Assembly (NCBI RefSeq): GCF_004010195.1 | Contig: NC_057718.1 | Span: 42,794,523-42,858,522 of the forward strand | Source: Chiloscyllium plagiosum | Taxonomy: Eukaryota | DNA length: 64,000 nucleotides | Direction: 5' to 3' | Part shown: positions 1 to 54,883 of the stretch, one piece after another | Position numbering within the stretch: the first letter of the stretch is position 1 | Layout: each line of letters opens with the position of its first letter | Made by a program: the position numbers and the translations under genes | The notes under the pieces: model-generated | What the model was told of the DNA's origin: nothing | What the model saw: only the letters and a program-made list of their open reading frames with translations | The model's database searches: none

Positions 1-264
1 GACCTCTCCGCCCCCACCCCAGTCTGACCTATCACCCTCACCTTGACCTCTTTCCACCTATCACAGTTCCGACGCCCCTCCCCCAAGTCCCTCCTCCCTA
101 CCTTTTATCTTAGCCTGCTGGACCAACTTTCCTCATTCCTGAAGAAGGGCTTATGCCCGAAACGTCGATTCTCCTGTTCCCTGGATGCTGCCTGACCTGC
201 TGCGCTTTTCCAGCAACACATTTTCAGCTCTGATCTCCAGCATCTGCAGACCTTACTTTCTCCT
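1..264 (+). mobile_element. Penelope-associated terminal repeat unit (family A) with hammerhead motif, cut by the window start
   Basis: C/T-rich tract, then CTGAAGAAGGGCTTATGCCCGAAACGTCG, then GATGCTGCCTGACCTGCTG...CCAGCATCTGCAG...CTTTCTCC. The same unit recurs at 24428-25172, 27450-27610, 33095-33293 and 53821-54037. Confidence 0.8.
135..170 (+). ncRNA. Minimal type-I hammerhead ribozyme, intact core
   Basis: CUGAAGA (139-145), extra A, stem II GGGC-UUAU-GCCC (147-158), GAAA (159-162), CG, UC (165-166). The ACGU palindrome replaces helix III. Stem I is weak (ATTC/GATT with a U-U mismatch). Confidence 0.75.
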
Positions 265-24400: not shown

Positions 24401-24427
24401 CATAAGTTGACACTATATTTGCCACTA

Positions 24428-25172
24428 GGAGAAACTGAGGACTGCAGATGCTGAAGATCAGAGTCAAAGGGTTTGGTGCAGGAAAAGCACATCAGGTCAG
24501 GCAGCATCTGAGGAGCAGGAGAATCGACATTTCGAGCACAAGCTCTTCATCAGAAAAGAGGGGGTGGCCCAAGGGGGCAGAGAGATAGATGGGAGTGGGG
24601 TGGGACTGGGGAGTGAAGGCAGCTGGGAATGTGATAGGTAGACAAAGGTGAAGGTGATGGTGATAGGTTGGAGAGGAGGGTGGAGTGGATAGGTGGGAAG
24701 GAAGATGGACTATTATGACAGTTCAAGAATGCAGTGCCGGGCTGGAAGGTTGCATCTGGGATAAGGTTGGGGTGGGGGAGGCGAAACGGGGAAACTGGTG
24801 AATTCCATATTACTCAGGATCGAGGTGGATTTCACCATCGATGCCGAGTAATGTGAATTTCACCAGTTTCCTCATTTCCCCTCCCCCCACCTTAACCCAG
24901 ATCCAACCTTCCAACTTGGCACCGTCCTCTTGAACTGCCCATCTTCCTTCCCATCTATCCGCTCCACCCTCCTCTTCAACATATCACCTTCACCCCTACC
25001 TTCATCTACCTATTGCATTCCCTGCTACCTTCCCCCACCCTCCTCCCATCTATCTCTCAGCCACGTTGAGCCACCCCTCATTCCTGATAAAGAGCCTATG
25101 TTCGAAACATCAACTCTCCTACTCCTCGGATGCTACCTGACCTGTTGTGCTTTTCCAGCACCACACTCTTCA
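24428..25172. mobile_element. Large fold-back Penelope-derived element (family A) with two opposing hammerhead motifs
   Basis: Imperfect inverted arms about 24455-24815 (G-rich) and 24845-25172 (C-rich). Ribozyme motifs at 24521-24556 (minus) and 25084-25112 (plus, CTGATAA and GAAACATC, decayed). Confidence 0.82.
24521..24556 (-). ncRNA. Minimal hammerhead motif, core nearly intact
   Basis: CUGAUGA-A-GAGC-UUGU-GCUC-GAAA-UG-UC-GAUUC. Stem II is GAGC/GCUC against GGGC/GCCC in other copies, a compensatory pair change. Confidence 0.68.
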
Positions 25173-27449: not shown

Positions 27450-27610
27450 GTCAATAGATATGCAGCTGGAAAAGCACAGCAGGTCAGAAAGTATCTGAGG
27501 AAATGGAATATCAACATTTTGGACTCAAATGCTATCTGACGTTTTGTGCTCTTCCAGCTTCACATCTATTGACTCTGACTTCCAGCATTTGCAGTCCTTA
27601 ATGTCTCCTA
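27450..27610. mobile_element. Short fold-back family A element with the centre deleted
   Basis: CAATAGAT...GCTGGAAAAGCACA pairs with TGTGCTCTTCCAGC...ATCTATTG; tail CCAGCATTTGCAGTCCT. Confidence 0.7.
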
Positions 27611-30475: not shown

Positions 30476-31669
30476 AATTCTATAGCACTAATACTTAAAG
30501 ATGTGAACAATACTTATAATGGTTTAATTAGGCTGAGCCAGTCAGGACAGTTTTGGACTCCTAGAAGTCTGACTTGTCTGTTACTAAGGTCTGTACCGAG
30601 AATTATTTTATAATAAACACATGATTGCTGTTTTGAAACAGATTTGCATGATCCCGTATTTGCTCTCACTTACAATAGAATCAAATATTGTGGTCATGGA
30701 CAGCATTCTTGAATCCTTAAAACATTTATCTTAGTCACTTTTTTGAAGAAGCGTGGTATCAGATTTCCCAAGAAATGTTTGCGGCAATTACATTTAAAGG
30801 AGTCAATTCCTCTTCTTCACTTCGACCTATAATATTTAAAATTACAATTAAGAATGATAAGAAATACAATCAAAAATCCTGGAAATACTCAGTATTTCTG
30901 GCAGCATCTGTGAGGGAAGAAAACAAAATTATTGTTCCAGGTCTGCAGAGACAGAGAGATAGAGGGAGTTTGATTGTCTTTTCATTTAGAAAACTTCTTT
31001 GCACAGTTGTAGCAACAGTTGGGAAGCTATCATGTTAGTCTCTCGAAGGTAGTAAGGACAAAAACTGTTGATGTTTCCATTTCCAGATTGCTTTTCGTTA
31101 GCCTCTGTGGAAAGAACATTTCTGTAGTTGTCAGGTTGGAACAGGAATAGGTGCAGCTGTGATTATCTCTATCGTCAAAATGCCCATTTGAAATCAGACT
31201 TACAGATAAAGACTAGGCATGTGGATGAGATATCAGAGTGCTGTATGTGTTTATTCAACTGTATTGTAGACACATTAATTTCTGGTTGAGGCAGTTAGCA
31301 AATGGAGAAAATTGTAGATGATTTTATAGATAATGAGAAACAACATAAATGCGTGGCTAGTAATATATCTACCTGGTGTGGTGTCTGTTTAAAAGTGTGT
31401 CTCAGGAAAGTGGTACAATGCCATATCTCTAGGTCAGTCTTGCCTCCACAGTGTGATTGGATCAAAATAACAGGGCAGGGAGTATGTGGGGACAGCAGAC
31501 TAGCAGACAATTTTGAGGCATTGTTGTAGTTTGGCAGGAGATCAAGTTTTATATTTACCAATATTTAAATATCTTGTAATTTTAAAATATACCATATTCT
31601 TAGTGCTTCAGTCTGCTGAGTTTGCATTTTAGAGTGACGTGCATTAAAGGAATTATTCTTCCTCCTTTT

Positions 31670-32635
31670 TCACCAGGACATTTCTGTAGGAGTACCCCAA
31701 GGTAGTACTCTAGCGCCAACCATCTTCAGCTGTTTCATAAATGACCTTCCCTCCATTGTAAGGTCAGAAGTAGGGATGTTCGCTGATGATTGCACAATAT
31801 TTAGTGCCATTTGTCATTCCTCAGATACTGAAATGACCTGTCTATACATGCAGCAAAAAAAGAAAACATCCAGGCTTGGGCTGATAAATAGAAAAAATAT
31901 TTACCTCACACAAGTACCTGACAATGACCATTTTCAATAAGAGAGAATCTAACCATTGCCTTTTGACATTTAACAGCATTACAATTGCTGAGTCCCCCAC
32001 TATTAACATCCTAAGGATTACTATTGAGCAGAACAGAACTGGATGAGCTATATCAAAAATGTGCTGACACGGGCAAGTCAGAGGCTGGGAATTCTATGCT
32101 AACTAACTCACCTCCTGACTCCTCACAGACTATATAATCTACAAGGCACAAATCAGGGGTGTCTTGGCAATTGTTGTGTCTTCATGGATGATTGCAACAC
32201 TAACAACACTCAAAACCTGACACCATCCAGGGCAAAGCAACCTGTTTGTTTGGCATCCCAATTACCACTTCCAACTTTCACTCCCTTCACCACAGATACA
32301 CCGTGGATACAATGCAGTAACTCACCAAGCCTCCTTCAGAAGTACCTTTGAACCAATGATCTCTTCTGCTTGGAAGGTCAAGGGGAGCAGGTGCATGGGA
32401 ACACTCCTTTCTGCATGTTATCCTCCAAGGCAGATGCTGTCTAATTTGGAAGGACATCATTGTTCCTTCACTATCACTAGGTCAAAATTCTGGAACTCCC
32501 TTTGTAACAGCACTTTGTATGTCTGTAAACCCCAAGGGCTCCAAGAATTCAAAAAGGCAGCTCATCATGATATTCTCCAGGGCAGAAGCATGGGAAATAA
32601 ATGCCAGTAATGCCAACATTCCATGAATTAATAAA
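31670..32635 (+). mobile_element. LINE RT C-half and 3' end (same family as 3600-5270)
   Basis: GVPQGSTLAPTIFSCFINDLP...MFADD readable at 31689-31790. Confidence 0.85.
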
Positions 32636-33094: not shown

Positions 33095-33293
33095 TAGAAA
33101 GTGAGGACTACAGATGCTGGAGAGTCAGAGTCGAAAACTATGACACTGGAAAAACCCTTCATCATGAAAAGTCTATGCCCAAAACGTCGACTCTCCGGCT
33201 CCTTGGATGATGCCAGACCTGCTCAAAATACATGCATAGATAATTGTATGCTATTGTTGCAGTGCTTTTTCCAGCACCACACTTTGTGACTCT
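33095..33293. mobile_element. Decayed fold-back family A element
   Basis: AAAGTGAGGACTACAGATGCTGGAG head; decayed ribozyme ATGAAAAGTCTATGCCCAAAACGTCG; TTTTCCAGCACCACACT. Confidence 0.7.
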
Positions 33294-52444: not shown

Positions 52445-53235
52445 GGTAACTAGTATGCTGGCCTTCACAGTTAGAGGATCCAAGTACAGAAGCAGCGATG
52501 TCTTGTTGCAAGTACAGAGGGCATTGACGAGACCAGACATGGAATATTGAGTGCGGTTTTGATCTCCCTATCTAAAGAAAGATGTTCTTGCTATAGAAGT
52601 GAAGATTTACTAGACTGATTCCTGGGATTGTATGATTGATGTATGGGGAGAGGTTGAATCAATTTAGGATTTTATTTGCTAAAGTTCAGAAGAGTGAGGG
52701 GTGGTATCTCATAGACAGGGCCAATTGCTGGAAGAAGGTTTTGATGATGTAGAGACCAGAACCAGAGGTCACAGTTTAAGGATACAGGGCACACCATTTA
52801 GGACTGAGATGAGGAACTATTGCTTTACTCAGAGTGGTGAGTCAGCCAAGCAGTCAAGGCCAATATATTAACTGTAACAATTGTGGATGCTGTAAATCAG
52901 AAACAACTGAAGTTGCTGGAAACCTCAGCAGGCCAGGCAGCATCTGTGCAGAAAAGTCAGAGTTAACATTTCAGGTCCAGTGCCCCTTCCTCAGAATCTT
53001 CACAGATGCTGCCAGATCTGCGGAGCTTTTCCAGAAACTTCTGTTTTTGTTTATGAAGGCCAAAATATTGTATGCTTTCAAGAAGGAATTGGATATAGCA
53101 TGTGAGAGTCAAGGGATCAATGGATTTGGGGGAAAGGTAGGAACAGCTTTTGATATGGATGATCATAATAAATGGCAGGGCAGGCTTCAAGGGCCAAATG
53201 ACCTATTGCTTACTCATATTTTCTCTGGTTCTATG
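52445..53235 (+). mobile_element. Decayed CR1 3' region with nested fold-back element
   Basis: GAGACCAGACATGGAATATTG, AGAACCAGAGGTCACAGTTTAAGGATA, and 3' UTR GGGCCAAATGACCTA. Confidence 0.8.
52870..53055. mobile_element. Fold-back family A-related mini-element with hammerhead motif at 52960-52996 (minus)
   Basis: 14-bp TSD AAGGCCAA(T/A)ATATT at 52856-52869 and 53056-53069. Minus strand UU-CUGAGGA-A-GGGGC-ACUG-GACCU-GAAA-UG-UU-AA. Confidence 0.78.
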
Positions 53236-53820
53236 TTTCCAGGGAACCTAAAAGTGTCAGCTGTGTGATGTTATTTACTTCCCAGTTTTCAGATCTGATG
53301 AATCTACACCCAAAATAATTCTGTTTTTTGATTTTTATGTGAAGCATTGATATTGTATTCTGCTTGAATTTATCAACTTGTGTGCAGTAGATTTTTGCAG
53401 CATCCTGCAGTACCAAATGTTGTCACTGCCCACATTAGTCATTGTCAGAATTGCCTTTTTGGAGAATGGATGGGCTGGGAGGAATGTTGTTTTGGTCAGT
53501 CAATGTCAAGGAAGATGATATTAGTTAGTGGCATAATGACATTGAACTGTTTTTGACGAGCTCTGGTTACAGACTGATGTTAGTTGCCTTTCATTTTTGC
53601 ATGGTCTTTAATAGCACTGTGTTATTTGGATCAAGGCTGAAGGCCTTCAACTACTGGTAGTTTCATTTAGAGTAGCATGACTGATATAATTGGTGTTCTT
53701 TTATATATCAGTCAGATTCCTTGTTCAGACAGATATCTTGAAGTTTATTAACAACACTAAACGCTTACATGGCTCCTATTTCACAGATTTACACACATCA
53801 TCTGGATTCTAAATTTATTG

Positions 53821-54037
53821 ATTTGAGAGTGTGGTGCTGGAAAAGCACACCAGGTCACGCAGCATCCAAGAAGCAGGAGAATCGACGTTTCAGGCAAAAC
53901 TTACCAGAATTCTGATGAAGGGCTTTTGCCTGAAACGTCAATTCTCCTGCTCCTCAGATGCTGCCCAACCTGCTGTGCTTTTCCATTACCACACTCTCGA
54001 CTCTAATCTCCAGCATTTGTAGTCCTCACTTTCACCC
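53821..54037. mobile_element. Fold-back family A mini-element
   Basis: 13-bp TSD TCTAAATTTATTG at 53808-53820 and 54038-54050; arms about 53825-53899 and 53924-53998. Confidence 0.88.
53906..53945 (+). ncRNA. Minimal type-I hammerhead ribozyme, best-formed copy
   Basis: Stem I AGAAUU/AAUUCU (6 bp), CUGAUGA (53912-53918), A, stem II GGGC-UUUU-GCCU, GAAA, CG, UC; predicted cut after C53939. Confidence 0.78.
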
Positions 54038-54883
54038 TCTAAATTTATTGGTGTTACTGGACATTATACACACATGTAACTGACTAATTTAATACATTAC
54101 ACTGACTCCATGATACATAGAGTGTGTCTAAAGTTGAAGAAGGTACATTTATACCAGAACATCACATGTTGTGGTATCATGTAACCATCTTAAAAGTACA
54201 GGCCTGACTGGTCTGGAATCTGTACCATGATGCAACAGTTGCAGAGTATAGCAGGCAACCAAGATCCAGGACATTGGTGGGTTGTATTTCAATAATTCAC
54301 CAGACAATAGAAGTGCTTTTTCAGTAGCCCGTTCCAAAAATGGTGACCAACCTGCTGTTGGTCATCTGTTGAAAGGTATTAGTGCATGTGTGTCATGCAT
54401 ATGCTGGGAACATGCAGAGTGACAGGATGTAACACCACTCAGAATGCAACTCTGATTTGGTGCTGGACTTGACATTTGGATCACACATGTCCTATCAATG
54501 CCCTCATGAGAACCCTGCCTGTTTTATTTCAAAGCCTTAGCAGGGGCTTCTTTCGAATTAAAAAGATGGTTACAGTAAAGAACAGGGTCCCTTAATCCTG
54601 ACATGTCCTTTGATTTATTAGGACCTTGTATGTGTGAAGAGGTTTTCCCTCCTGTTACCATTTATTCTTCTGCCATTCACTTTAAAATGGTGTCCTCCAC
54701 TTATCAATCCTTCTATCAATGGGAAATGTTTCACCCTATCTATCTTCCAAAAGCCATCATCATTTTCCATACAGCTAGTGGATTTAATCTCAGCTTTCTC
54801 TTCTCTAAGGAAAACAGAATCAACTTCTCCAGCCCATCTACACAGCTGATGAATCTCATTCTGGGGTAATTCTCACATATCTA

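Follow-up and report, generated by a model that had tools for sequence, protein, structure and literature searches.

The 217-bp element in this stretch of shark DNA (the window, 64 kb in all) raises the question of whether a hammerhead motif lying within an inverted repeat is an active ribozyme governed by its own antisense arm. The element is flanked by a 13-bp TSD, TCTAAATTTATTG, whose two copies match at 13/13 positions (Table 1). Its inverted arms (53820-53899 and 53924-54003, 80 nt) are about 85-85.5% complementary, and 23/24 positions pair between 53876-53899 and 53924-53947. The first-pass annotation described these parts accurately: the TSD, the 80-nt inverted arms, an intact minimal core, a 6-bp stem I and a stem II closed by G·U. 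It went on to propose the best candidate for a still-active ribozyme, with the arm as a built-in off switch. Our analysis leads to a different answer: the element is a real feature of a known kind, and a dead copy.

Table 1 Parts of the 217-bp element and its flanks (window positions; PLE stub numbering takes C3 of the hammerhead core as +1)
Feature	Position	Strand	Description
Left target-site duplication	53808..53820	.	13 bp, AT-rich
Inverted short arm	53821..53899	-	Antisense PLE stub, ~+91 back to +13, no tail
Junction	53900..53911	.	Decayed antisense core copy plus AATT
Type I minimal hammerhead	53912..53945	+	CUGAUGA through 3' strand of stem I
Remaining sense arm	53946..54002	+	PLE pLTR 3' part, paired with left arm
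One-sided tail of PLE insertions	54003..54037	+	~35 nt
Right target-site duplication	54038..54050	.	

The core opens with CUGAUGA at 53912-53918, followed by an extra A (A9a, 53919) absent from the earlier description. Stem II (GGGC/GCCU, 53920-53931, loop UUUU, closing pair G53920·U53931) is followed by GAAA at 53932-53935, CG, U53938 and C53939, the predicted cut site. Stem I pairs AGAAUU (53906-53911) with AAUUCU (53940-53945) over 6 bp. Stem III is a palindromic ACGU whose single pair and 2-nt loop make the motif dimer-only, dependent on another free copy. The defining features of PLE minimal hammerheads (CUGANGA, the extra base 9a, GAAA, UH and the palindromic 15.1-16.1 region) are present, except that the conserved G10.1-C11.1 pair is G·U in this copy. 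This position is G-C in 27/36 sampled cores and 19/29 relatives, and G10.1·U11.1 is CpG decay of a conserved G-C pair that is specific to the 217-bp copy, not family-wide. Another register of stem II, with A53919-U53931 paired and no extra base, had a probability of 0.001 and was rejected.

A relaxed minimal-hammerhead descriptor found 3 sites in the 64-kb window, compared with a mean of 0.175 (maximum 2) in 40 mononucleotide shuffles; the motif exceeds chance expectation, and with its core elements intact the earlier identification of a hammerhead is borne out. Rfam returned 0 matches across the window at the gathering score, and a local search at E<=10 returned 7 sub-threshold hairpin-type rows, none of them a hammerhead. 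As Rfam models need a fuller fold, a missing match is no evidence against the motif.

The 28-nt core occurs exactly 22,898 times in the 3.56-Gb genome, compared with 0 occurrences of a reversed control. A sample of 864 kb, made up of 80 blind-chosen 10-kb stretches (800 kb) plus the window and including 20 kb of N, held 147 family segments in 95 insertions, of which 51 were single-segment groups and 33 were head-to-head hairpins. The 217-bp hairpin is a single old member of a population of Penelope-type stubs that numbers in the tens of thousands. The parent is known from partial copies: longer copies carry a GIY-YIG domain (Pfam E 1.6e-5), and in three loci (L136, L147 and L148) the domain and the core share a strand, the domain ending ~220 bp upstream of the core with the same pLTR next. 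In locus L131, an RT-like piece, GIY-YIG and the core follow one another in that order, the RT piece matching Pfam RVT_1 only at E 0.22. The sequence belongs to the pLTR of an element with a C-terminal GIY-YIG endonuclease, as in EN+ PLEs, and an inverted 5'-truncated copy, a one-sided tail of 30-40 bp and a TSD are likewise found, as in EN+ PLE insertions.

Further copies lie elsewhere in the window. A 745-bp head-to-head hairpin of the same family (24427-25170) has a degenerate TSD and reaches the end of the GIY-YIG ORF, and three more decayed hairpin stubs of the same or a related family occupy 27465-27608, 33096-33223 and 52886-53033. The copy at 139-166 (+) has the core CUGAAGA, an intact G10.1-C11.1 pair and native upstream sequence; its stem II is free (p 0.98) and its stem I is only the native 2 bp. 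At 2177 and 28040 (-) lies a second PLE-type hammerhead family with different flanking sequence, whose stem II (GGAGC/GCTCC), palindrome (AGCT) and stem I (CAC/GTG) covary with those of the first. An identical 62-nt stretch at 2497 and 2715, on opposite strands ~220 bp apart, is an unrelated inverted repeat. A scan of 103/105 frames of at least 75 aa in the window, which short exons would escape, recognised no host exon; its sole match was a LINE-type reverse transcriptase fragment at 31638-31937 (+) (Pfam RVT_1, E 1.6e-8).

The sampled hairpins record how such copies were built. A long arm (ending past +100) was joined to a short arm in 32/33 head-to-head pairs, a count in which one row is truncated where its locus stops and ends lost to erosion may pass as short. 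TSD-like matches of at least 8 bp flanked 27/33 hairpins in a search run without a shuffle control. Non-majority letters were common to the arms of one hairpin at 4.7%, compared with 1.5% between hairpins, and the junction strings, centred approximately, differed in 33/33; the tail was found on either side and arm length reached ~370 bp. The letter sharing and the distinct junctions indicate that each hairpin was built at its insertion from one source element. The TSD had been taken to show that the whole hairpin inserted as a unit: it does support one insertion event, but a hairpin RNA as template does not fit junctions that differ and arms that range from tens to hundreds of bases.

The 5' ends of insertions cluster at -7 to +6 (62/147), where the parent sequence reads TCATTC, an initiator-like word. 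Promoters with an Inr have been described for pLTRs in passages of PMC2377424 and PMC3846280. A pile-up of 5' ends at the cut site, the footprint expected of in vivo cleavage, was rejected: only 3/147 fell at +28 to +31, with no excess (p 0.48), in BLAST-derived ends that are noisy by a few bases and can be extended by palindromic joints. In a list of 913 junctions, 10 among the first 100, counted by eye, ended exactly at the cut site, a class inflated by 2-nt microhomology. The position of the 5' ends before the core, and not at the cut site, indicates that the templates were mostly uncut RNA.

We conclude that the 217-bp copy is very probably a dead end, an old insertion in which two short PLE stubs lie head to head between the copies of a 13-bp TSD. 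Its hammerhead is predicted to be permanently buried and likely never cuts at the locus. In this process, the element endonuclease would have nicked both target strands ~13 bp apart, and each nick would have primed cDNA on element RNA, one from a distal internal start (+126, with the tail) and one from a proximal start (+91, without it). Both cDNAs would then have been extended to the 5' terminus of the RNA, slightly upstream of CUGAUGA, and been joined end to end. This joint would have produced the mirror arm, along with the 6-bp stem I, as by-products, and neither would be a selected part. In vitro, a PLE protein from a lizard nicks both target strands and extends them from two internal starts that bound the tail (PMC11167929), and these activities would give exactly the long/short hairpin product.

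The best-surviving alternative, unlikely but a serious contender, retains the PLE origin and the dead end and derives the inverted arm from fold-back self-priming or a template switch of a single cDNA. Palindromic junctions are read as self-priming on an antisense template in part of PMC3846280, and it would agree with this that both arms derive from one source element and that the junctions carry short microhomologies and filler; self-priming alone, however, does not explain two fixed outer ends, one long and one short, in 32/33 pairs (binomial p 4e-9 against independent choice). Priming from two nicks is the preferred reading. That the hairpin is a non-autonomous MITE- or retrozyme-like unit, transcribed and re-inserted whole, would account for the many copies with a similar 200-230 bp outline and TSDs, yet it is improbable given the 33 distinct junctions, the tail on either side, arms of up to ~370 bp and solo arms that are equally common (51/95 groups single). 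Nor was a near-identical daughter of the 217-bp copy found among 40 relatives scored, or tandem units of the non-LTR retrozyme type.

Stem I is 2 bp in 29/36 intact sampled cores and 6 bp in 2/36, and each of the two 6-bp cores lies at a joint and is locked. In the 217-bp copy, the 5' strand of stem I (53906-53911) is not the parent's: it is made of joint sequence and of the antisense arm's decayed inner end, and the parent reads CUCAUUC or UUUAUUC at this place. In the parent sequence (L031-L059), an upstream CCUUUAU can pair with AUGAAGG of the core, and in read-through RNA this native 7-bp hairpin would be a rival to the hammerhead fold.

Nearest-neighbour folding, which ignores chaperones, ADAR editing and tertiary contacts and so yields predictions, placed the hammerhead fold of the full element 28.9 kcal/mol above the ensemble at 37 C (P 4e-21) and 32.1 kcal/mol above it at 25 C. 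The 24-nt arm by itself gave a gap of 23.8 kcal/mol, and the probability of stem II was at most 0.02 in 7/7 growing transcript prefixes. A + strand read-through transcript is predicted to make the arm first, and the arm to capture the emerging core; the - strand of the element has no intact core. For the isolated fragment, the predicted probabilities were 0.79 for stem I and 0.99 for stem II. A modelled dimer of the 217-bp copy scored -15.7 kcal/mol compared with -10.5 for a native copy, 5 better, and its hammerhead fold was still 11 kcal/mol above the dimer's minimum. The claims that the arm out-competes the catalytic fold and that the isolated fragment folds more favourably than do copies retaining the native 2-bp stem I thus agree with predicted folding. 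The off switch fares differently: a conformational switch would be expected to have alternative folds close in energy, or else a kinetic window in which the active fold can form, and the models gave a 28.9 kcal/mol gap and no window in 7/7 prefixes. With a gap of ~29 kcal/mol and an arm that lies upstream and is made first, no ON state is predicted, and the antisense arm is best called a permanent lock arising by accident, as modelled here.

Published activities bear on what the freed motif might do. Isolated PLE minimal hammerheads are inactive as monomers and have low activity as dimers (PMC4209133, in part); PLE hammerheads cleave as dimers according to Lunse et al., as cited in a passage of PMC6765202; and the lizard PLE motif cut only with protein, public reads having no RNA ends at the site (PMC11167929). 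Once excised, the fragment could well show weak cleavage in vitro as a dimer. An active ribozyme with the arm as a selected, reversible off switch is the least probable reading, and most improbable in itself: an intact core, an unusually long stem I (2/36), good predicted pairing in isolation, a dimer fold 5 kcal/mol more stable than the native copy's, 10 arm-to-arm mismatched positions that weaken the hairpin slightly and the protein assistance seen in vitro (PMC11167929) are outweighed by the predicted gap and co-transcriptional capture, a stem III that demands a second free copy of a motif inactive as monomer and weak as dimer (PMC4209133), a stem I 5' strand foreign to the parent, CpG-type decay that includes G10.1-C11.1, and the same arm, with varied breakpoints, in 33/95 sampled insertions.

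The locus also shows its age. Its arm identity ranks 26th of 33 hairpins, 25 having better-matched arms, and it differs from the majority of 29 relatives at 6/75 and 10/124 arm/tail positions (16/199), with CpG changes at 53931 and 53940 among the differences. None of 40 relatives scored exceeded 86% identity to the element. In contigs of a related organism, 29 and 26 element letters were joined to flanks, both under the 31-letter bridging rule, and flanks differ by ~3%; this does no more than suggest that the insertion is older than the split. As an old copy that has lost G10.1-C11.1, is fully sequestered in the predicted fold and is surpassed elsewhere by better pre-folded ribozymes, the element does not hold its place as the best candidate for a still-active ribozyme.

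A joint-type start of stem I is found in 658 cores genome-wide; in the first 30 of these 658 as listed, stem I was at least 5 bp in 11 and 16-30 bp in 4. In hairpins L063, L066, L077 and L087 (core at ~1504 of each locus), the arm reaches no further than the cut site, giving a stem I of 16-30 bp with stem II free; the 10 cut-site junctions counted above are of exactly this type. These four have predicted probabilities of 0.98 for stem I and 1.00 for stem II, among 8 loci chosen for folding in which 3 others were locked and 1 lacked stem I. An arm of this type is predicted to set up the ribozyme, not to block it, and on the same models such copies, together with the unlocked window copy at 139, are better active candidates than the 217-bp element.

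We tentatively suggest a broader picture, possible though short of probable, in which the PLE insertion cycle has left its fossil record in the shark stubs: both nicked strands would prime cDNA at two fixed internal positions of uncut RNA, synthesis would run off at an initiator lying 3-4 bases ahead of the ribozyme, and the breakpoint would fix the fate of the copy. An arm covering the core would lock it, as in the 217-bp copy and most others; an arm ending at the cut site would give a 16-30 bp stem I and perhaps a hundred or so pre-folded ribozymes stronger than the parent's that, acting as dimers or helped by PLE protein, could cleave host transcripts. The 217-bp locus itself matters little, as one decayed copy of a very abundant repeat. 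A switch, if true, would have been a rare natural regulated hammerhead in a vertebrate, and the evidence is against it. The long/short coupling and the 5' ends before the cut site make PLE priming testable in a huge sample, and in vivo PLE hammerhead cutting is likewise testable in the shark genome from family statistics.

Literature searches, with Repbase/Dfam and subscription papers outside their scope, returned no description of shark PLE hammerheads, and sharks are not named among metazoan PLE hammerhead hosts in the available text of PMC4209133 (Cervera & de la Pena 2014). The D. virilis-type minimal hammerheads described there resemble the shark family in being type I, in the extra base between 9 and 10.1, in the palindromic 2-nt helix III insertion and in a short native helix I; unlike them, the 217-bp copy has G·U for G10.1-C11.1 and a junction-made 6-bp helix I. 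Opposite-strand hammerhead pairs 100-700 bp apart were already reported in the same paper.

The layout of an inverted truncated copy, a one-sided tail and a TSD is already in print for EN+ PLEs, in passages of PMC3846280 (Arkhipova 2013) and PMC8557442 (Craig 2021). The units described there likewise have a head-to-head inverted 5' copy that falls short of the direct one by roughly the length of the tail, with a tail at one end only, a TSD and an AT-rich target. In contrast to them, the shark element has no ORF and consists of two stubs only, 217 bp in all, its TSD is 13 bp compared with 8-10 bp in the rotifer cases, and its copy number is far higher. Non-LTR retrozymes (PMC7229834; bioRxiv 10.64898/2026.07.22.740005, both in part) are also non-coding, PLE-related and equipped with a type I hammerhead, but they are tandem head-to-tail units with two usable ribozymes, whereas the shark element comprises just one pair, arranged head to head, and its only intact core is sequestered. 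The in vitro system of Poseidon from Anolis carolinensis (PAc; Frangieh 2024, PMC11167929) shares two internal RT starts bounding the tail, nicking and extension of both strands, and uncut RNA as the main template, with no RNA ends at the cut site. Unlike in PAc, GIY-YIG is preceded in the shark parent by a cysteine-rich linker, a feature tied to Neptune/Nematis in PMC8557442.
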